From: Alphaproteobacteria bacterium
GTDB taxonomy: Bacteria; Pseudomonadota; Alphaproteobacteria; UBA6615
Assembly: GCA_038131445.1 (NCBI GenBank)
Contig: JAYPPL010000010.1
Location: 349,918-413,917 of the forward strand
Direction of reading: 5' to 3'
Length of the DNA: 64,000 nucleotides
Positions 1,603 through 23,338 of this stretch are shown here, piece after piece; the stretch's first letter is position 1, and the number at the start of each line of letters is the position of its first letter. The position numbers and the translations under genes were made by a program. Below the pieces are notes generated by a model that was not told the DNA's origin, ran no database searches, and worked only from the letters and a program-made list of their open reading frames with translations.

Positions 1603-1719
1603 TCTCTCGTTCCTTCCATTTTGCCGCATCTTGCGTCCGGCCAACCTTTTCGTAAATGCTGAGGCTATCATGCCGCGCCGGTGCTGGCGGCTCAATACAC
1701 AATTCTTTACTGTAGTTTT

Positions 1720-3321
1720 ATGGACTCCATGCGGATAGACGCAGCAGACCTGCGCGCGATGCTTGACGACGGCGATGAACTTGCCCTGCTCGATGTGCGC
1801 GAACAGGGAGAGTTTGGCCATTGTCATCTCTTTCATGCCGTCAACATTCCCCTCAGCCGCCTTGAGTTGGAGGTGGAGAGGCTGGTGCCGCGACACAGCG
1901 TGCGCCTGGTGCTGACTGATGGAGGCATAGCCGGGCTGGGCGAACGCGCCACCGACGTGCTCGGCGAGATGGGCTACACGGATATCCGGATATGCGTGAG
2001 CGGGCCGGACGACTGGGAAGCGGCGGGCTTTACGCTCTATTCCGGGATCAACGTGCCCAGCAAGGCGTTCGGCGAGGCTGTGGAACACTTCTATCATACA
2101 CCCCACATCGACGCGCCAGCGCTGAAGGCGATGCAGGACCGGGGCGAAGACATGGTGGTGCTCGATTCTCGTACCTTCGCCGAGTACCGGAACATGAATA
2201 TTCCCATGGGCGTGAGCGTGCCAGGCGGTGAACTCGCTTATCGAGTGCGCGATCTCGCGCCGAGTCCGGATACGACCGTCGTTGTGAACTGCGCGGGGCG
2301 GACGCGCAGTATCCTTGGCGCGCAGTCTATCATCAATGCGGGTGTCCCCAACCGGGTTGTCGCGCTAGAAAACGGCACGATGGGATGGCACCTGGCCGGG
2401 TTTGAGCTCGAACACGGCAACACGCGCAGCTTTCCTCCCAGTGCGCCGGAGACGATTGCTGCCGCGCAGGAGATGCGCGTGCGGATCGCCGATCAGTTCG
2501 GTGTTGTGCAGATCAGCCGTGAGACCCTGGACGCGTGGCGAAGCGAAGTCGGGGAACGCTCGCTGTTCATTCTCGACGTCCGTACGCCGGAGGAATACGC
2601 CGCCGGCCATCTGCCGGGCGCGCGCTCGGCGCCGGGTGGGCAGCTGGTTCAGGCCACCGACTTCCAGATCGGCGTGCCGCGCGGGCGAATTGTGCTCGTC
2701 GATGATACAGGCGTGCGCGCGACGATGACGGCACACTGGCTTGTGCAGATGGGGTTGCCGGACGTCCATGTTCTTTCGGATGGCCTGGCTGGATGCGCGC
2801 TGGAGACCGGGCCTGAACCGTTGTTTGAGCCGGAGATAGGTCCGAAGGATATGATTGGGGCGGCTGATCTGGTGCAAGAGGTTGGCTCTGGCAGTGTGTT
2901 GGTCCTGGATCTCTCTGAGAGCCGGGTCTTTCGTATGGGACATATTCCCGGGGCGCGGTGGGCGCTACGTTCGCGGATTGGTGAAACCGGTCCTGAGTTA
3001 GCTCGAGACGGAGAGATTGTGCTGACATCCGAGGACGGTAGGCTTGCCGCACTCGCTCTGGATGAAGTCCGTGCAATGACGCCGTTGCGTGTCCGGGTCC
3101 TCGATGGGGGAAATGCGGCTTGGACGGCTGCGGGGCAGGCCTTGGAATCTGATCCACAGGTCCCTGCCGATGACGCGTGCATTGATGTCTATCTGCGAGC
3201 TTACGACCGCAACGTGGATGTCGAGGCGCGAATGCAGGAGTACATCGACTGGGAGGTAGCTTTAATCCGGCAGATTGGTGCAGACCCGGACGTGGAGTTC
3301 CGTCTCGGCCGAAAAGCCTAG
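1720..3321 (+). CDS. Four-domain rhodanese-related sulfurtransferase
   Basis: Repeated LLDVRE/VLDSRT/ILDVRT/VLDLSE starts, GHLPGA/GHIPGA motifs, catalytic-type NCAGRTRS loop in domain 2; alternative start 1729. Confidence 0.85.
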   Translation: MDSMRIDAADLRAMLDDGDELALLDVREQGEFGHCHLFHAVNIPLSRLELEVERLVPRHSVRLVLTDGGIAGLGERATDVLGEMGYTDIRICVSGPDDWEAAGFTLYSGINVPSKAFGEAVEHFYHTPHIDAPALKAMQDRGEDMVVLDSRTFAEYRNMNIPMGVSVPGGELAYRVRDLAPSPDTTVVVNCAGRTRSILGAQSIINAGVPNRVVALENGTMGWHLAGFELEHGNTRSFPPSAPETIAAAQEMRVRIADQFGVVQISRETLDAWRSEVGERSLFILDVRTPEEYAAGHLPGARSAPGGQLVQATDFQIGVPRGRIVLVDDTGVRATMTAHWLVQMGLPDVHVLSDGLAGCALETGPEPLFEPEIGPKDMIGAADLVQEVGSGSVLVLDLSESRVFRMGHIPGARWALRSRIGETGPELARDGEIVLTSEDGRLAALALDEVRAMTPLRVRVLDGGNAAWTAAGQALESDPQVPADDACIDVYLRAYDRNVDVEARMQEYIDWEVALIRQIGADPDVEFRLGRKA

Positions 3322-5441: not shown

Positions 5442-7268
5442 ATGGCGCAGGCGAACAGCGGCAAAACCCGCAACCGAAAACTCTTGAAATGGGTCGAGCA
5501 GGTAGCGGCCCTGACCAAGCCGGACGACATCTACTGGTGCGACGGGTCGAAAGAAGAATACGACCGTCTGTGCGCCGGGATGGTCGAGCGGGGAACCCTG
5601 ATTCCGCTGAACCAAGAATTGCGGCCCGGCTGCTTCCTTGCGCGCTCTGACCCGGATGACGTTGCTCGCGTCGAGGACCGCACATTCGTATGCTGGGACG
5701 ATCCGGAAGATGCCGGTCCAAACAACAATTGGATCGCGCCGGACGAAATGCACTCCACCCTGAACGGACTGTTCGACGGCGCGATGCGCGGTCGGACCAT
5801 GTACGTCATTCCGTTCAGCATGGGGCCGCTGGGCTCACATATCGCCCATATCGGCGTGCAGCTCACGGACTCCCCCTACGTTGCGGCCAGCATGCGCATC
5901 ATGACCCGTATGGGTCAGAAGGCGCTGGACGTTCTTGGCGACGGCGATTTTGTTCCGTGCCTGCACACGGTCGGGGCGCCGCTGGCGGACGGCGAGGAAG
6001 ATGTCGTCTGGCCCTGCAACGAGACCAAATACATTGTCCACTTCCCGCAGGATCACTCGATCTGGTCCTACGGCAGCGGCTATGGCGGCAACGCCCTGCT
6101 AGGCAAGAAGTGCTTCTCGCTCCGCATCGCCTCGATCATGGCGAAGGAAGAGGGCTGGCTCGCCGAGCATATGCTGATCCTGGGTCTGGAATCGCCGAAG
6201 GGCGAAAAGGCCTATGTTGCGGCTGCGTTCCCAAGCGCCTGCGGTAAGACCAATCTGGCCATGCTTATTCCGCCGGAAGGCTATGAGGGTTGGAAGGTCA
6301 ACACGGTCGGTGACGACATCGCGTGGATCAAGCCGGGCAAGGACGGGCGGCTCTATGCGATTAACCCCGAGGCCGGTTATTTCGGTGTTGTGCCGGGCAC
6401 GTCCACCAAGACCAACCCCAACGCCATGAAGATGATCGAGCGCGACACCATCTTCACCAATGTCGCGCTTACTGATGACGGCGATGTCTGGTGGGAAGGC
6501 AAGGACGGCGAGGTGCCGGCGCATCTGATCGACTGGACGGGCAATGACTGGACTCCCGACAGCGACACGCCCGCGGCGCATCCCAATGCCCGCTTCACCG
6601 TAGCCGCGCAGAACTGCCCAAGTATCGACCCGGCCTGGGACGATCCGTCCGGCGTACCGATCGACGCCTTCGTCTTTGGTGGCCGGCTGAGCAGCACCTT
6701 CCCGCTGGTCTATGAGGCCAAGGACTGGGAGCACGGCGTCTATATGGCTGCGACCATGGGCTCCGAAGCGACAGCGGCGGCGGTCAATCAGGCGGCGATA
6801 CGCCGTGATCCGATGGCGATGCTGCCCTTCTGCGGCTACAACATGGCCGACTACTGGACACACTGGCTGAGCTTCCAGGACAAGGACCTGAAGCTGCCGA
6901 AAATTTTCCGTGTCAACTGGTTCCGCAAGGACGATGAGGGCAACTTCATCTGGCCGGGCTTCGGTGAGAACATGCGTGTGCTCGAATGGGTGTGCGAGCG
7001 TGTCCACGGCAATTTGGATGCGGTAGAGGGCCCGCTCGGCGGCATGCCCCGTTATCAGGACCTCAACTGGCAGGGTCTCGATTTTACCGAGGATGCATTC
7101 CACGGGATCATGGACCTATCGCGCGAGGACGGCAGCAATGAAGCCGAGGCACAGAAGGAACTCTTCGACAGCTTCGCTGACCGTCTGCCAGCCGAAATGG
7201 AGGCCCAGCGCCAGGCGTTGCTGTCCCACATGGAGGGCGCACCAGAAGTCTGGCGGATCGCCAGCTAG
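5442..7268 (+). CDS. pckG: Phosphoenolpyruvate carboxykinase (GTP)
   Basis: [59 protein letters not shown]; start MAQANSG after GGAG. Confidence 0.95.
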
Positions 7269-7769: not shown

Positions 7770-8432
7770 CTATTCCACCGTCTTTTCCGATGCGCCCGCG
7801 CCGGGCTTATTCCACCAGCAGTCACACATGAAGGCGACGTAGTCCGCCGGGTCGATCGACTTCGATTTCGTGAAGCGGCCCATGACCGGGCTCTCCTCGA
7901 TGTCGATCTGCAGACCGTCCGTGAATCGGTTCCAGAAGTTGAAGAAGCACGACACCATCGTGATCTCGATGATCTGCGCCTCGTCGAAGTGCTTCTTCAT
8001 TTCCGGCATCGCGTCGGGATTCTCACCCCGGTAGGTCTTCTCCGTCAGCACCTCCGCCCATTTCATCGCGGCTTTCTCCGCGGGCGTGAAGTGTTCGGAA
8101 TTCTGGTAGTCACCTTCGATGGCGGCGATCATGTCATCGTCAAAACCCAACCCTCGACCGAGCGTTACGTTGTGACCGATTCAGTATTTGCATCCGTTCA
8201 GCATCGAGGTTTTCAGGATGACCAGCGCCTTGGTGCGGACATCTAGGATACCCGTCACCTCTTCACGCAGCGCGGCCACCAGAAATCCGTAGATGGACTG
8301 GGCCAGTTTGGGTGAATGGGCGGCGGTGCGGACCGCGTTGGCAACACGCCCGAACATCTGCGTCGAATGTTCGAACAGGATCTTGGCCTCTGGTCCCGCC
8401 TCTTCGTCGGTGACGACCGGCAAATGCGGCAT
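7770..8432 (-). CDS. AhpD/carboxymuconolactone decarboxylase family protein, probable selenoprotein (CxxU, UGA at 8181-8183)
   Basis: ORFs 8181..8432 and 7770..8150 are in the same frame; read-through gives SMLNGCKY-U-IGHNVTLGRGLGF, matching the AhpD CxxCxxH motif; downstream FTPAEKAAMKWAEVLT and FNFWNR are CMD-family motifs; AAGGAGG RBS. Confidence 0.85.
8136..8180 (-). promoter_or_regulatory. Candidate bacterial SECIS element
   Basis: mRNA after UGA: AUCGGUCACAACGUAACGCUC-GGUC-GAGGGUUGGGUUUUGACGAU; upper stem AAC.CUC/GAG.GUU with a G-first GGUC loop 21 nt after UGA; lower stem AUC.GUCA/UGAC.GAU (folded by eye). Confidence 0.7.
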
Positions 8433-8533
8433 CGTCGTCCTCCTTTTCGTGGTTTTCCAGTCGCCAGATTAATGCCCGTTGGCCGGGAACGACAGAGGAT
8501 AGGGACGCAACCCGCGTTGCGCCGGATGCAGGC

Positions 8534-10220
8534 CTACCTGCCCTTTCCCTTGGCCCAGGAGTCGCGCAGCCCGACCGTACGGTTGAAGACGAGGGCGTCC
8601 GGCGCGGAGTCCGGATCGGCGCAGAAATAGCCCAGCCGCTCGAACTGGATCGGAACGCCGGTTTCGGCATCCGTGAGCGCGGGCTCCAGATAACAGGTCT
8701 CACGCACCGACAGGGAAGCCGGATTAAGGTCATCCAGCCAGTCGCGCTCCTTGCCGGGTTCCTCTTCGGCAAAGAGGTGGTCATAGAGCCGGACTTCGGC
8801 GGTCGTGGCGTGGGCGGCCGAGACCCAGTGGATCGTGCCACGCACTTTGCGCCCGTCCGGCGCATCGCCGCCACGCGTCTCGGGGTCGTAGGTGCAGCGA
8901 AGCTCGACCACATTGCCGTTCGTCGTCCTTGATGACCTCGTGGCAGGTCACGAAATAGGCGAAGCGCAGGCGCACCTCCTGACCGATGGCTAGGCGGTGA
9001 AACTTCTTCGGTGGGTCCTCCATGAAGTCGTCCCGCTCCACATAGAGTTCCCGTCCGAAGGGCACCTTGCGGGTGCCGGCGCTCTCGTCGCCCGGATGGT
9101 TCGCTGCGTCGAGTTCCTCGCTCTGTCCCTCGGGGTAATTCTCGATGACCATCTTGACGGGATCGAGCACAGCCATGCGTCGCAGCGCGGAGGTGTTCAG
9201 GTGGTCGCGGATGGTGTTCTCGAAATAGGACATTTCCACCAGCCCGTCCGCCTTCGTGACGCCGAGACGCGCGATGAAATCCCGGATCGCCACGGCAGGT
9301 ACGCCCCGGCGGCGCAGGCCGGAAACGGTCGGCATGCGCGGGTCGTCCCAGCCGGCAACGTGGCCGTCGGTGACGAGCTGGATGAGGCGTCGTTTGGACA
9401 GCACGGTGTGGCCCAGGTTCAGGCGGCCGAACTCGTACTGGCGCGGGCGCGACGGCACCGGCAGGTTCTCGATAAACCAGTCATAGAGCGGGCGGTGGTC
9501 CTCGAACTCCAGTGTGCAGATGGAGTGGGTGATCCCCTCGATGGCATCCGACTGACCATGGGCGAAGTCGTAGGTGGGATAGATACACCACGCATCGCCC
9601 GTGCGCGGATGAGGCGCGCGCAAGATCCGGTAGAGGACCGGATCGCGCAGATTGATGTTGCCGGAGGCCATGTCGATCTTCGCCCGCAGGACCTTAGCGC
9701 CGTCAGCGAACTCGCCTGCGCGCATGCGCGCGAACAGGTTGAGGTTTTCGTCCGGCGCGCGGTCGCGATAGGGGCTCGATTTGCCGGGCTCTGTCAGCGT
9801 GCCGCGGTATTCGCGAATTTCGTTCGCCGAGAGGTCATCCACATAGGCCTTGCCCTCACGGATCAGGTGACTGGCCCATTCGTACAACTGCTCGAAATAG
9901 TCCGACGCGTGGAATAGGTTCTCGCCCCAGTCGAAACCGAGCCAGCGCACGTCTCTCTCGATGGCGCGGATATAGGTTTCGTCTTCCTTGGCGGGGTTGG
10001 TGTCGTCGAACCGCAGGTGGCACTGGCCCCCGAATTCTGCCGCGATCCCGAAATTCAGACAGATCGACTTGGCGTGGCCGATGTGCAGGAAACCGTTCGG
10101 CTCCGGTGGGAACCGGGTCACGACGCGGCTGTGCAGGCCGGTATCGAGGTCGGTGCGTACCCGCTCACGAATGAAATCGGTCAGAGCGTCGTCGGTGTGG
10201 TTGTCTGTTAGGTCGTTCAT
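8534..10220 (-). CDS. glnS: Glutaminyl-tRNA synthetase with one +1 frameshift near 8921
   Basis: [41 protein letters not shown]; C-terminal [12 protein letters not shown]...[10 protein letters not shown]...QFERLGYF...[11 protein letters not shown] lies in the second frame (ORF 8534..8911). Confidence 0.92.
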
Positions 10221-10346: not shown

Positions 10347-11309
10347 TTACGGTGTAACGTGCTGAATGAACGACATGGGCGCAGGCTCACCCCACTGGGA
10401 ATTCAGGCCTTCCTCGGCCGGAATGAAGCGCGTGCCGTATTCCTCGTTCAGGGTGTCGGTGTCCGCCCAGTGCTCATGCACTCGGCCCCACGGATCCTTC
10501 CAGTAGTCGTAGATCTGGCTGCCGAGGACGTGTCGGCCGATACCCCAGACATGGTCATATTCACCGGTGTCGCGCAGATGCTCGTGGCCCATCATCACAT
10601 CGTCAAAGTCGGGGACCTCGAACGAGATGTGGTTGAGGCCGGCATTCTCGTTTTGCACATACAAGAAGACGTGGTGATCGACGAACTCCTTGCCCGCATC
10701 GATGCGGTTGAAGCTGGCGATGACCTTGTCCTTGTCACCTTCAACGAAGACCTCATCCGAGCCAACCAGGCCGATGTGGTGGCGTACCCAGGCGATGCAT
10801 TCGGCTAGCTTCGGCGTACCGATCACGCCATGGCCGATGCGCATGACATGGGCGGGGCCTTTCGGCTCGCGCCACAGCACGCCCGCACGGCGGTACTTGT
10901 CGATAGTGCCGAGGTTATAGGCATGACGGTCGATCGGTATTTCCGGGACCTCTTCGATACCGTGCACGACCTCGATAGTGTAGCCGTTCGGCTCGGTAAG
11001 GCGCACCCGCTTGCCGCCGCCCGGTTCGTCTAGGTTTTCGACCTCCGAGGCGTTCCCGGCTTCCTTGGCGAGCTTGTGAAGGTCGTCTTCGTTGGCCGCT
11101 CGGAAGGCGAGGCTGATGAAGCCGGGATTACCCTTCTCGGTCACGTGGATGTGGTTGCTGGTGCCGGTGCCGCGCATGAAAAGCTTGTCGGCGGTTCGTT
11201 CAGTGCGAACCATGCCGAACCGCGTCAGAAACTCTTCCTGCTTGTCGAGGTCGGGCGAGCGAATCCGACCCCAGGCGATATCCGCGACCCTGATAATTGG
11301 TTCCGTCAT
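10347..11309 (-). CDS. Two-domain VOC-family protein, extradiol ring-cleavage dioxygenase-like (THT oxygenase-like)
   Basis: RIGHGV, DHHVF, LNHISFE, WGIGRHVLGSQIYDYWKDPWGRVHEHWAD; GGAGGAG RBS. Confidence 0.75.
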   Translation of the reverse strand: MTEPIIRVADIAWGRIRSPDLDKQEEFLTRFGMVRTERTADKLFMRGTGTSNHIHVTEKGNPGFISLAFRAANEDDLHKLAKEAGNASEVENLDEPGGGKRVRLTEPNGYTIEVVHGIEEVPEIPIDRHAYNLGTIDKYRRAGVLWREPKGPAHVMRIGHGVIGTPKLAECIAWVRHHIGLVGSDEVFVEGDKDKVIASFNRIDAGKEFVDHHVFLYVQNENAGLNHISFEVPDFDDVMMGHEHLRDTGEYDHVWGIGRHVLGSQIYDYWKDPWGRVHEHWADTDTLNEEYGTRFIPAEEGLNSQWGEPAPMSFIQHVTP

Positions 11310-11417
11310 GTGATTGTCTCCTCCAGACGTCCGCCTGTACGACGGCATTTCTGTCACTCTAGGCAAACCTGTGTCATGCGAAAAGGCCGCAACATGATCT
11401 CTCCGGTGCGGCAGTTT

Positions 11418-11475
11418 CCATACGGTCAAGTACGGTATTGCGCGGCGCGCACACTGTCAATACGTTGGCGTATGG
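11418..11475. promoter_or_regulatory. Two imperfect palindromes (consensus CCATAC-N6-GTATGG), probable TetR operators
   Basis: CCATACGGTCAAGTACGG (11418-11435) and CAATACGTTGGCGTATGG (11458-11475) in the divergent VOC/TetR intergenic region. Confidence 0.6.
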
Positions 11476-11485
11476 AGGTGATGCC

Positions 11486-12067
11486 GTGGCGGCAAAGGCG
11501 AAACGCGAACAGGTACACGACCGAGATTCATGGCTCGCGGAGGCCCTAGAACTCATGCGCGAGCGCGGGGTCGATCATGTAAAGGTTGAACCGCTTGCCA
11601 AGCGACTTGGGGTCACTAAGGGCAGCTTTTATTGGCACTTCAAGAACCGCGGTGACCTGTTGCACTCGATTCCGGAGTTCTGGGTGCGCTCCCAGACCGA
11701 TCCGGTCCTCGACACGGCCAGCCGGACCCGGGGCGGGCCGCTGGATAAGATGCGCGCTGTCCTCGAGTTCCTCGCGCATGAGGATCCGGACCGGTACGAT
11801 AACGCCATGCGCGCCTGGGCGCAGTTCGATACCGAAGTAGCTGCCGCCGTCGCAAAGGTCGATGAGCGTCGCATGGCGACAGCGCGCGTTCTGTTCGAGG
11901 AGGCGGGGTTGAGCGCGGCCGATGCGGCCTTCCGCGCTCGGCTCTGGTATTTCTACGACGTGGGCGAGCATGTCACCGGCGATACGCCGTCCACGGTAGA
12001 AGAACGGCTGGCGCGTGCCGAGCAGCGGATGCGCCTTTTGACGTCGGATCTGACGGCGAAACCTTGA
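11486..12067 (+). CDS. TetR/AcrR family transcriptional regulator
   Basis: HTH VKVEPLAKRLGVTKGSFYWHFKNRGDLL; GTG start after GGAGG. Confidence 0.9.
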   Translation: MAAKAKREQVHDRDSWLAEALELMRERGVDHVKVEPLAKRLGVTKGSFYWHFKNRGDLLHSIPEFWVRSQTDPVLDTASRTRGGPLDKMRAVLEFLAHEDPDRYDNAMRAWAQFDTEVAAAVAKVDERRMATARVLFEEAGLSAADAAFRARLWYFYDVGEHVTGDTPSTVEERLARAEQRMRLLTSDLTAKP

Positions 12068-12117: not shown

Positions 12118-12444
12118 ATGCGCGGACCACAGGATTATGGCGGTCTTCCCGCCGGGCCGGTTGACCCGGTAACCCATGAGCATGAACCTACCCATTGGGA
12201 AAAAACAGTTGATGCTCTGATGATGCTGGTCTTTGACCAGAAGCGGCAGCTCGCGCGGGTGGATGAATCCCGACGCATGCAGGAAGCGCTGGGCGAGGAC
12301 TATCACAAGTTTCCCTATTACGAGCGCTGGCTGCAGGCCGTGACATGGCTGATGCTGGAAAAGGGTGTGTTCTCCCAGGAAGAACTGGAAGCCAAGCAGG
12401 CCGAGGTGCGCGCGCGTCTGGAGGCGGAGCGCGATGCAGCCTAA
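12118..12444 (+). CDS. Nitrile hydratase beta N-terminal-like subunit (ScnB-like)
   Basis: MRGPQDYGG, WEK, DESRR, YYERWL..LEKGVFSQEEL. Confidence 0.8.
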   Translation: MRGPQDYGGLPAGPVDPVTHEHEPTHWEKTVDALMMLVFDQKRQLARVDESRRMQEALGEDYHKFPYYERWLQAVTWLMLEKGVFSQEELEAKQAEVRARLEAERDAA

Positions 12445-12718
12445 GTACAAGCCGGGCGACAAGGTCCGTATCCTTGAGCGCAACCAGCCTGGACACGTGC
12501 GCACGCCTATCTATGTGCGCGGCAAGACCGGTGTGATCGAACGCATCGTCGGTTCGTTTCCCAATCCCGAACTGCTCGCCTATGGCCATACGGGCCTGCC
12601 CTACAAGATGCTTTACCGGGTAAATTTCAGGCAGTCCGACCTCTGGGACGACTATGACGGGCCCTTGGACGACACGCTCGAGATCGAGATTTACGAACAC
12701 TGGCTGGCGCCGGCCTGA
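12434..12718 (+). CDS. Nitrile hydratase beta C-terminal (SH3-like) subunit (ScnA-like)
   Basis: KYKPGDKVRI..GHVRTPIYVRGKTGVI..LYRVNF..DLW..EIYEHWL; overlaps the upstream gene by 11 nt. Confidence 0.8.
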   Translation: MQPKYKPGDKVRILERNQPGHVRTPIYVRGKTGVIERIVGSFPNPELLAYGHTGLPYKMLYRVNFRQSDLWDDYDGPLDDTLEIEIYEHWLAPA

Positions 12719-12735
12719 CGCGCGCGGAGGTACCG

Positions 12736-13395
12736 ATGAGCGAACATCATCACGACCACGATCACCCGACCCACACCCATGACGGCAAACCGATTCAGGA
12801 AGACCCGTTGCCGCCAATCGAGGCGCAGATTCTCGAAGCATCGGTCCGCGAATTGCTGATTGAGAAGGGCGTCGTCTCCGCCGAAGAGATCCGCCGCGCC
12901 ATCGAAGTGATGGAAACACGCGGTGAATCGCTGGGTGCCCGCATCGTGGCCCGCGCCTGGACAGACCCGGCGTTCAAGCAGAAGCTACTCCACCAAAGCG
13001 ACGACGCATTGCTGGAGTTCGGCATCGACATGCGGCCGATGGAACTGTGCGTGGTCGAGAACACCGAGGATGTGCACAACATGGTCGTTTGCACGCTGTG
13101 TTCCTGTTATCCGCGCCCGATCTTGGGCATTCCGCCGGCCTGGTACAAGCGGCGCGATTATCGCGCGCGCGCGGTGCGCGAGCCACGCGCGGTGCTGAAG
13201 GAATTCGGGACAGAACTTCCCGACTCTCAGCAGGTTCGTGTGCACGACAGCAACGCCGATCTCCGCTATCTCGTTCTGCCGAAGCGTCCGAAAGGTACGG
13301 AAGGCTGGACTGCTGAGCAGCTTGAAGCGTTGATCACCCGCGACAGCATGATCGGTGTGTCCGACGTGCGCGATCCGTTGGAAACCGGTGCCTAA
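12736..13395 (+). CDS. Cobalt-type nitrile hydratase alpha / thiocyanate hydrolase gamma subunit (ScnC-like)
   Basis: VARAWTDPAFK, VVCTLCSCYPRPILG metal motif, VREPRAVLKEFG, RYLVLP; His-rich N-terminus. Confidence 0.9.
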   Translation: MSEHHHDHDHPTHTHDGKPIQEDPLPPIEAQILEASVRELLIEKGVVSAEEIRRAIEVMETRGESLGARIVARAWTDPAFKQKLLHQSDDALLEFGIDMRPMELCVVENTEDVHNMVVCTLCSCYPRPILGIPPAWYKRRDYRARAVREPRAVLKEFGTELPDSQQVRVHDSNADLRYLVLPKRPKGTEGWTAEQLEALITRDSMIGVSDVRDPLETGA

Positions 13396-13657
13396 TATAT
13401 CTCGCGGCACGGTAGGAATGGTGCTGGGTGAGCCGGTGGTAAATTTCACTTATTTTCACGATATGGTATCGCAAAAAATCAGGGCTTAATTTTAATCGAA
13501 TTAAAGCCCTGCCATTTCGCTTCGCGCCGTGCGGATGTCGAACCTGCAGGGTAGGGTCTTGGTGGGGCGTGACCCTAGCCGTTAGATGAATGTAATGGTA
13601 AGGGCGATTTGGTGTAGCCCTGCCGAGCCTATTGTGGATGGGGGCACACGCGTGTCG

Positions 13658-22501: not shown

Positions 22502-22697
22502 GGCACCCGGATCACGCAGGCGGGGCATTACCGCCGTCGCACTACATCCGGGTTGTATACGCAACGACATGACGGGCGCGCACGCGTCACTTTCGCCGGA
22601 GGAATCTGTCGCGGGAATCCGAGATGTTCTGGAACATTTGGGACCCGCCAACGCGGAACGTTTTTTTGATTACAGGGGCAAGGACATCGCATGGTAG
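22502..22697 (+). pseudogene. C-terminal remnant of a second SDR paralogue
   Basis: Translates as RRGITAVALHPGCIRNDMTGAHASLSPEESVAGIRDVLEHL...FFDYRGKDIAW*, parallel to the C-terminus of the preceding SDR; no N-terminus. Confidence 0.75.
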
Positions 22698-23338
22698 ATC
22701 CGATAGACAGGCTAATCGCGGGATTTCGCGGGTTTCGCGCCCGTTACTATGAGCAGCGGCCCGAACGCATGCAGGAGCTCGCCCGGGAGGGTCAGTCCCC
22801 GGAAGTCATGTTGATTGCGTGTTCGGACTCGCGTGTCGATCCGGCATTGTTGCTTGGTTCTGAACCGGGTGAACTCTTCATCGTGCGCAACGTGGCCAAC
22901 CTGGTCCCGCCCTACGGACCAGATAACGGGCATCACGGCACCAGTGCGGCGCTGGAGTTTGCCGTCCGGGATCTGCAAGTGAAGCACATTGTGATCCTCG
23001 GCCATTCTATGTGCGGCGGTGTTAAGGCGCTGCGCGCGGCCATGTCAGGCGAGCCGCCGTCACGCGAGTTTATTGCGCCATGGATGGAGATTGCCGCGGA
23101 AGCCTGCCCCTGCGGCGCGGATGGCGAGGTGCCGGAGCAATCCAAGGTCGAGCGCGACGGCATCCGAATTTCGCTGCGCAATCTCCTCACCTTCCCTTGG
23201 ATTGCCGACAAGGTTTCCTCGGGAGAATTGGGTCTTCACGGCTGGTGGATCGACCTTGATGGCGGGAGGCTGTGCGCTGTGCAACCCCAAGGCGAGGGAC
23301 TGCGTGAACTTGTGGGCGGAGCAGATTCCGCTGACTGA
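22691..23338 (+). CDS. Beta-class carbonic anhydrase
   Basis: GQSPE, IACSDSRV, GELFIVRNVANLV, GHSMCGG. Confidence 0.92.
   Translation: MVDPIDRLIAGFRGFRARYYEQRPERMQELAREGQSPEVMLIACSDSRVDPALLLGSEPGELFIVRNVANLVPPYGPDNGHHGTSAALEFAVRDLQVKHIVILGHSMCGGVKALRAAMSGEPPSREFIAPWMEIAAEACPCGADGEVPEQSKVERDGIRISLRNLLTFPWIADKVSSGELGLHGWWIDLDGGRLCAVQPQGEGLRELVGGADSAD

Follow-up and report, generated by a model that had tools for sequence, protein, structure and literature searches.

The 64,000-nucleotide stretch analysed here (the window; positions 349,918 to 413,917 of contig JAYPPL010000010.1, assembly GCA_038131445.1, from a member of the Alphaproteobacteria, UBA6615) encodes, at positions 12118-13395, a three-gene enzyme of the cobalt nitrile hydratase (NHase) type, whose naturally split beta subunit is genuine and conserved. 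The structure of the genes, its conservation, the membership of a clade of split-beta enzymes and the residue equivalences with thiocyanate hydrolase (SCNase) were directly observed. Judged from its sequence, the enzyme is probably an activator-independent, three-subunit NHase acting on some organic nitrile. The operon is composed of:

12118..12444, + strand: betaN, from ATG 12118 to TAA 12444, 108 amino acids; N-terminal half of an NHase beta subunit, ScnB/AnhD-type
12434..12718, + strand: betaC, from ATG 12434 to TGA 12718, 94 amino acids; SH3-like C-terminal half of an NHase beta subunit, ScnA/AnhE-type
12736..13395, + strand: alpha, from ATG 12736 to TAA 13395, 219 amino acids; metal-binding catalytic subunit

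Relative to betaN, betaC is shifted to the +1 frame, and the two genes share 11 nucleotides; a gap of 17 nucleotides separates betaC from alpha, and Shine-Dalgarno motifs of the GGAGG type are found 5' of the betaC and alpha starts (for alpha, GGAGG lies 6 nucleotides upstream). The three products match the Pfam families PF21006 (NHase_beta_N, 65.4 bits for betaN), PF02211 (NHase_beta_C, 73.3 bits for betaC) and PF02979 (NHase_alpha, 269.5 bits for alpha). The alpha motif reads C119-T-L-C122-S123-C124-Y-P-R127, which is of the cobalt type, and the betaN motif reads D49-E50-S51-R52-R53. The first-pass annotation of this DNA, made without database searches, had described two overlapping beta genes with their own starts, in the order betaN-betaC-alpha, and a CTLCSC motif followed by YPR; its coordinates and description were exact.

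On TIGR03888, the model of the one-piece beta subunit (226 positions), betaN corresponds to positions 1-99 and betaC to positions 136-226, with scores of 54.3 and 72.3 bits for the two genes versus a cut-off of 152.2. Since model positions 100-135 are not covered, the approximately 35-residue linker of the one-piece beta is absent, not frameshifted. The alpha subunit marginally passes TIGR01323 (NHase alpha; 252.7 bits versus a cut-off of 249.85). Its best solved relatives are cobalt-type NHase alphas (199-234 bits), with SCNase gamma at 182 bits, and betaC aligns with residues 130-219 of the cobalt NHase beta chain 3qxe_B (55.9 bits), an alignment in which GH.R.P.Y.RGK is conserved. Letter-for-letter copies exist in public databases, where betaC belongs to a 62-member cluster and betaN to a 71-member cluster; betaN is named 'hypothetical protein', 'nitrile hydratase subunit beta' or 'ScnB-like protein', and close alpha homologues are named 'nitrile hydratase subunit alpha'. 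The N-terminus of alpha (window 12736-12790) is rich in His and Asp (HDHDH-like, with 7 His within residues 4-15) and may act as a metal-capturing tail; His/Asp-rich alpha N-termini were seen in both split and classical types (loci L001-L107), and the orthologue group retains THTHDGKPIQ.

The conservation of the split was scrutinized in 61 genomes of relatives, among which orthologues (alpha 69-93% identical) were found in 25 besides the window's own genome, and loci were taken from 24. In all 24 of these loci betaN and betaC are located in different frames, and RVDESRRMQE (betaN) and CTLCSCYPR (alpha) are unchanged (25/25 with the window). The identity with the window proteins is 73-98% for betaN and 75-94% for betaC, and an M23-peptidase gene is located downstream, as in the window, in 23 of the 24. 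This joint conservation of split, motifs and M23 neighbour points to vertical inheritance under constraint. The two-frame betaN>betaC>alpha layout was also found, with varied junctions, in 34/34 distant loci (alpha identity 50-64%) from Alpha- and Betaproteobacteria, Chloroflexota, Actinomycetota and Rokubacteria. Furthermore, contigs from one DNA run and three RNA-library runs, which belong to different studies, span both gene junctions with zero indels. Two adjacent open reading frames (ORFs) in different frames that jointly resemble one beta subunit could suggest an ordinary two-subunit NHase with a beta gene disrupted by an indel from sequencing or assembly, the alternative named by the first-pass annotation, or a recent pseudogene, and nothing further favours such an origin. 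It is contradicted by the retention of the split in every orthologous and distant locus, by the missing linker, by the strong conservation of both halves, and by the solved SCNase, in which the corresponding chains are separate too. On the conserved frames and on the indel-free junctions in contigs of four independent runs, an indel or pseudogene origin was ruled out, with hardly any room left for doubt.

The RNA-library contigs of the three studies, which cover the genes, also provide a hint of expression, a weak one because DNA carry-over is possible; contigs of this kind cannot establish transcription, a single transcript or an expression level, and the stretch left uncovered in X16 and X17 is uninformative.

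The equivalence between the active-site residues of the window enzyme and those of SCNase was established by alignment with solved chains. The SCNase gamma chain 2dd4_C reads CTLCSCYPRPILG, with its Arg at position 136 and with CTLCSCYPR the same as in the window alpha, and the chain of the R136W mutant (3vyg_C) reads YPW where 2dd4_C has YPR; alpha Arg127 is thus equivalent to SCNase gamma-Arg136. The SCNase beta subunit reads E88-E89-R90-R91-R92, and the spacing to the flanking anchors allowed three registers for R90, R91 and R92 relative to the DEFR motif of classical NHases, so that profiles of 120 SCNase-type betaN, 63 split-clade betaN and 23 one-piece betas were compared. Three hhalign pairs (probabilities 97.6, 99.7 and 99.5) and one BLASTP alignment concur on the register: R90 corresponds to the residue directly preceding the conserved Arg (Ser51 in the window betaN, Phe in DEFR), R91 to the conserved Arg itself (Arg52), and R92 to Arg53. 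Of 120 SCNase-type betaN, 115 matched the search pattern, and every one of these has the R-R-R triplet. According to a 2013 paper, two arginines, Arg90 and Arg136, reportedly control the selectivity of SCNase; the window enzyme carries the second of these and has Ser51 instead of the first.

Gene architecture and pocket residue were compared in loci retrieved by a contig search with the alpha protein (relatives of at most 64% identity) plus the window. All 35 betaN>betaC>alpha loci, including the window, display YPR (33) or YPK (2), and the one-piece-beta loci display YPW (32/32). The alpha tree comprised 112 rows, including 8 of the 24 orthologue loci, 14 of 120 SCNase-annotated alphas and 11 of 120 close homologues; it was built with a quick method (LG+G4, rooted on one fused-beta row), with supports from the Shimodaira-Hasegawa-like approximate likelihood ratio test (SH-aLRT) without bootstrap, and as 47 of its 109 inner branches are unresolved, we rely on three named branches only. 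The first unites all 73 YPR/YPK rows in one clade (SH-aLRT 99). The second groups the 15 SCNase-gamma-annotated rows in a nested subclade (SH-aLRT 100) with a long stem (0.57), and the third places the window and its orthologues in a separate 17-row subclade (SH-aLRT 99), outside the SCNase subclade. The scores on TIGR03887, the SCNase equivalog model, are likewise bimodal: five SCNase-type alphas score 378-387 bits and seven other split-clade alphas 180-225 bits, with the window alpha at 216.9, below the cut-off of 291.45.

An exhaustive search with betaN yielded 624 clusters (50% identity) at E <=0.001, of which 142 at E <=1e-10, and columns were counted over the best 150 representatives plus the window (151 rows). 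The Arg52 column holds Arg in 150 of the 151 rows, and the Arg53 column holds Arg in 122 and Lys in 8 (together 130/151). The Ser51 column is occupied by Leu (81), Met (15), Ser (13), Phe (7), His (7), Asn (6), Val (5), Ile (4), Arg (3), Lys (3) and a few others. The alpha Arg and the Arg-Arg pair are thus hallmarks of the clade. In these alignments the clade is defined by the split beta, the betaN-betaC-alpha order and the Arg replacing the Trp of CSCYPW; SCNase appears as one specialised, derived branch of it, marked by Arg at the Ser51 column, and the window enzyme is placed off that branch. The position before the Arg-Arg pair is the clade's variable site and presumably determines specificity.

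The first-pass annotation had compared the locus with SCNase, citing its gene order, the replacement of the Trp of CSCYPW by gamma-Arg136 and, by eye, Ser at the beta-Arg90 position; all three stand, the first on an SCNase-type locus (L053, Nonomuraea) with the betaN-betaC-alpha order, the other two on the alignments described above. It had also named nesting among ordinary two-subunit NHases as an outcome that would speak against its proposal, and the tree places the window within the YPR/YPK clade instead. Its hybrid substrate pocket is present as a combination of residues (the alpha Arg without beta-Arg90) but is not specific to this locus, as it represents the usual state of the large clade that includes the SCNase branch.

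Several loci depart from the standard layout. Two to four tandem betaN paralogues precede betaC and alpha in some split-clade loci (L001 174-1368; L006 4798-5443; L009 4925-5608), and database proteins of approximately 200 amino acids contain two betaN-like stretches (P0411, P0412, P0418, P0457); the tandem copies may reflect duplication toward a dedicated chaperone. Locus L053 possesses an extra betaN-like ORF (6189-6932) after alpha, which may be the counterpart of an activator, and a TetR-like gene before the operon. In a Methyloligellaceae locus on a long tree branch (L038 3871-4848), betaN-like and alpha-like parts share one 326-amino-acid frame of the YPR type, which may be a betaN-alpha fusion; no betaC match was found nearby. 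Two related classical YPW loci (L045 6001-7238 and L049 6001-7250) encode alpha followed by betaN-like and betaC-like parts in different frames, corresponding to either an independent beta split or a shared frameshift.

The window enzyme as a true thiocyanate hydrolase with a variant pocket, converting SCN- to carbonyl sulfide (COS) and NH3, is improbable on this sequence evidence. It shares its three-gene order and CTLCSCYPR with the solved SCNase, the SCNase alpha subunit (2dd4_A, 47.4 bits) is the fifth-best solved match of betaC, and betaN is listed in some public records under the ScnB-like name. Approximately 9 kb away from the operon, the window encodes a protein with four rhodanese domains (1681-3318) on one side and a beta-class carbonic anhydrase (22691-23335) on the other, and COS hydrolase is a relative of beta-class carbonic anhydrases; these two genes are non-adjacent to the operon and lie amid housekeeping genes. 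The alpha score on TIGR03887 is far below both the cut-off and the SCNase-type alphas, the window is placed outside the SCNase subclade, and its alpha is 54% identical to the SCNase type and lacks the latter's insertion of approximately 10 residues before the active site. In addition, betaN lacks the N-terminal extension of approximately 40 residues and the CECL.W motif of SCNase-type betaN, and has Ser where the R-R-R triplet starts in every pattern-matched SCNase-type betaN.

The genome to which the window belongs (2.56 Mb, 88.8% complete) encodes a second, classical cobalt-type NHase on contig 3 (locus L081 466-2211, minus strand), consisting of an alpha with CTLCSCYPI (Ile replacing the usual Trp), a 221-amino-acid one-piece beta and a 117-amino-acid accessory protein; a flavin-reductase-like ORF is located directly upstream of it. 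No activator gene was found beside the split operon in the window, and the only match to the activator family nitrile_acc (TIGR03889) in this genome is the accessory gene beside the classical NHase. This accessory protein also matches PF21006, the betaN family, with 35.9 bits. In the five relatives (98-100% complete) with no NHase alpha other than the split orthologue, nitrile_acc found no match (0/5).

From these comparisons we infer which metal the enzyme binds, how its subunits assemble, that it needs no activator and which reaction it catalyses, as follows. In the NHase family, Co(III) is held by three cysteine sulfurs (here Cys119, Cys122 and Cys124) and two backbone amides, and two of the metal cysteines are oxidised, to sulfinate and sulfenate. 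The window alpha would accordingly bind low-spin Co(III) via Cys119, Cys122, Ser123 and Cys124. BetaN and betaC would jointly take the place of a one-piece beta and close off the active site, with Arg52 of betaN and the second arginine region of betaC (GH.R.P.Y.RGK) holding the oxygens of the oxidised cysteines. A nitrile would coordinate to the metal and be hydrated to the amide, and Ser51, invariant within the orthologue group, probably tunes the substrate. Free betaN would probably serve as a maturation chaperone, as reported for AnhD of the Streptomyces canus NHase (PMC7329996). A betaN that is free and homologous to NHase activators fits this published proposal and also the existence of activator-less relatives.

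Several points weigh against an activator-independent hydratase of an ordinary organic nitrile. The extra positive charge provided by Arg127 and Arg53, both as in SCNase, could give the whole clade a preference for substrates that are anionic or very polar. Next to the operon there is neither an amidase gene nor any other gene of a nitrile pathway, and the flanks of the 34 distant split loci (145 flanking ORFs) display no common theme. The absence of an activator depends on one family model (nitrile_acc, TIGR03889), with which the same search was positive in the window genome. The three-subunit NHases ScNHase and ToyJKL (see below) are likened to the window enzyme by their published description. 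With these points taken into account, an activator-independent, three-subunit NHase remains the reading that we favour, with moderate confidence.

The first-pass annotation had suggested that a pocket which keeps the alpha Arg and has Ser in place of beta-Arg90 might select neither a classical nitrile nor SCN-. Candidates would be small nitriles of anionic or pseudohalide character, such as cyanoacetate-like acids, selenocyanate or cyanamide, and we regard this reading as rather unlikely. In its favour, Arg127 corresponds to SCNase gamma-Arg136 and Arg53 to SCNase beta-Arg92, a position with Arg or Lys in most of the clade representatives, so that the pocket region is more positively charged than in NHases of the YPW/DEFR type. 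Ser51 is invariant in the 25 orthologous loci even though its column varies clade-wide, which suggests a fixed, specific substrate, and the gene belongs to the core chromosome of a marine/estuarine alphaproteobacterial family. On the other hand, the pocket role of Ser51 and Arg53 is deduced from sequence comparison, the alpha Arg is found clade-wide among very different neighbourhoods, and the operon has no neighbouring gene for the transport or metabolism of an anionic nitrile. Moreover, the published three-subunit, activator-free ScNHase takes neutral nitriles (PMC7329996).

The surroundings of the operon contain three further features:

10347-11429, - strand: extradiol (glyoxalase-fold) dioxygenase gene, head to head with the TetR gene
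11438..12067, + strand: TetR-family regulator gene (PF00440, 52.5 bits), 50 nucleotides upstream of betaN
13471..13520, + strand: imperfect hairpin approximately 75 nucleotides past the alpha stop, with 22-nucleotide arms that are 73% complementary and a 6-nucleotide loop

The hairpin is a possible end of the operon; a scan for consensus terminators detected none. Upstream of the 24 orthologous loci, a TetR gene was found in just 3, all from the same genus, and flavin-reductase-like ORFs in 4, the remaining upstream ORFs having no Pfam match. A link between the TetR gene and the enzyme is uncertain, and the regulator may control the extradiol dioxygenase instead. By tblastn, the dioxygenase was found in one orthologous locus out of 24 (L084, one of the three with a TetR gene); in the other two TetR loci, the available flanking sequence may be too short to reveal it. 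The stretch 10347-12067 with both genes appears to be an insertion ahead of the NHase operon that is specific to the genus.

The window as a whole represents core chromosome, with genes for pyruvate kinase, phosphoenolpyruvate carboxykinase, glutaminyl-tRNA synthetase, SmpB, a leucine-catabolism cluster, ClpS/ClpA and ribonucleotide reductase. No aldoxime dehydratase or sulfur-oxidation genes adjoin the operon. Among the distant split loci an amidase gene lies beside one only (L015), other neighbours being EamA or TctC transporters, UbiD and molybdopterin dehydrogenases; these flanking ORFs were picked crudely (greedy longest ORFs in GC-rich DNA), and many have no Pfam match. The Gln/Glu-tRNA synthetase ORF of the window (8781-10220, minus strand) has an Arg/Pro-rich tail and overlaps a same-strand ORF (8266-8913) without Pfam match, which may indicate a frameshift in the gene or in the assembly.

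NHases have industrial uses, and for most of them the natural substrate is unknown. The SCNase-like features of the locus, a split beta and Arg in place of Trp, mark a broad clade whose studied members, as far as we found, are SCNase and perhaps one or two actinomycete enzymes. Three-subunit members of the NHase family are already in print (the SCNase structures, ToyJKL and ScNHase) and the locus itself is already annotated as NHase subunits, so that it is the wider clade, rather than the window locus, that is worth characterising. Within it, the orthologues of the window enzyme lend themselves well to such work: they are inherited vertically at a syntenic position, most genomes of the family have them, and in several complete genomes the split orthologue is the only NHase, with no recognisable activator. 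If maturation is truly activator-free, such enzymes would be easier to express for biocatalysis. A broader and doubtful proposal is that the split-beta, alpha-Arg clade comprises activator-free hydratases tuned to small polar or anionic compounds with a C-N triple bond, of which the Ser51/Arg52/Arg53/Arg127 group would be one form. As the gene belongs to the core genome of a marine/estuarine family, such tuning would imply a natural marine nitrile or pseudohalide, new as a substrate of the NHase family, and would offer a way into the long-standing question of the role of NHases in nature.

Among known systems, the window enzyme was compared with the classical cobalt NHases (3QXE, 2DPP, 1IRE and the second NHase of its own genome). 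It shares with them the alpha fold, the CTLCSC motif and the beta Arg of D-E-x-R, and the classical alphas in the examined loci are 48-55% identical to the window alpha. However, the classical enzymes have a one-piece beta of approximately 220-230 amino acids, mostly encoded downstream of alpha, where the window beta is split; Trp follows CSCYP where the window has Arg127, and His, Phe or Tyr follows the conserved beta Arg where the window has Arg53. They also have a dedicated activator gene, and none is located beside the window operon. Of the features that characterise a classical NHase, the window enzyme thus displays the CTLCSC alpha, and lacks the single beta, the Trp and DEFR-H/F/Y residues and the operon activator.

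Like the window enzyme, SCNase from Thiobacillus thioparus (ScnB/ScnA/ScnC; 2DD4, 2DD5, mutant 3VYG) has three subunits, the counterparts of betaN, betaC and alpha, and locus L053 displays the same gene order as the window. The two enzymes share the CTLCSCYPRPILG stretch including Arg136, the Arg-Arg pair at Arg52/Arg53 and the alpha superclade. In contrast, the window alpha scores 182 bits against 2dd4_C, versus 313 bits for the SCNase-type alpha of L053 (386.6 bits on TIGR03887), and SCNase-type betaN are 140-157 amino acids long, versus 108 in the window. Ser51 at the beta-Arg90 position and an alpha below the TIGR03887 cut-off set the window enzyme further apart. The activator of SCNase is P15K, and the window has no downstream activator gene. 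A phylogenetic survey found SCNase homologues to be broadly diverse and rich in Alphaproteobacteria, without functional separation (PMC10098168).

ToyJKL, the toyocamycin NHase of Streptomyces rimosus, also has three subunits, two small ones standing for beta. Its alpha gene comes first, and it belongs to a deazapurine antibiotic cluster, whereas no such genes are found in the window. The ToyJKL alpha subunit is able to mature alone, as reported in the ScNHase paper (PMC7329996).

A further known system is ScNHase of Streptomyces canus CGMCC 13662, a cobalt-type, activator-free enzyme encoded by anhD-anhE-anhA (beta N-half, beta C-half and alpha; PMC7329996). Its subunits are described as being of 10.4, 11.4 and 21.3 kDa; cobalt enters alpha directly under reducing conditions, with AnhD reported as a metallochaperone and subunit-swapping chaperone; and the enzyme is said to hydrate acetamiprid, thiacloprid and benzonitrile, and not indole-3-acetonitrile (PMC7329996). 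The window operon displays what this description gives for the ScNHase type, namely the same gene order, similar subunit sizes (108, 94 and 219 amino acids in the window; approximately 10-12 kDa for the small subunits) and no activator gene. The two differ in that ScNHase has an actinomycete source, with the xenobiotics acetamiprid and thiacloprid, plus benzonitrile, as its reported substrates.

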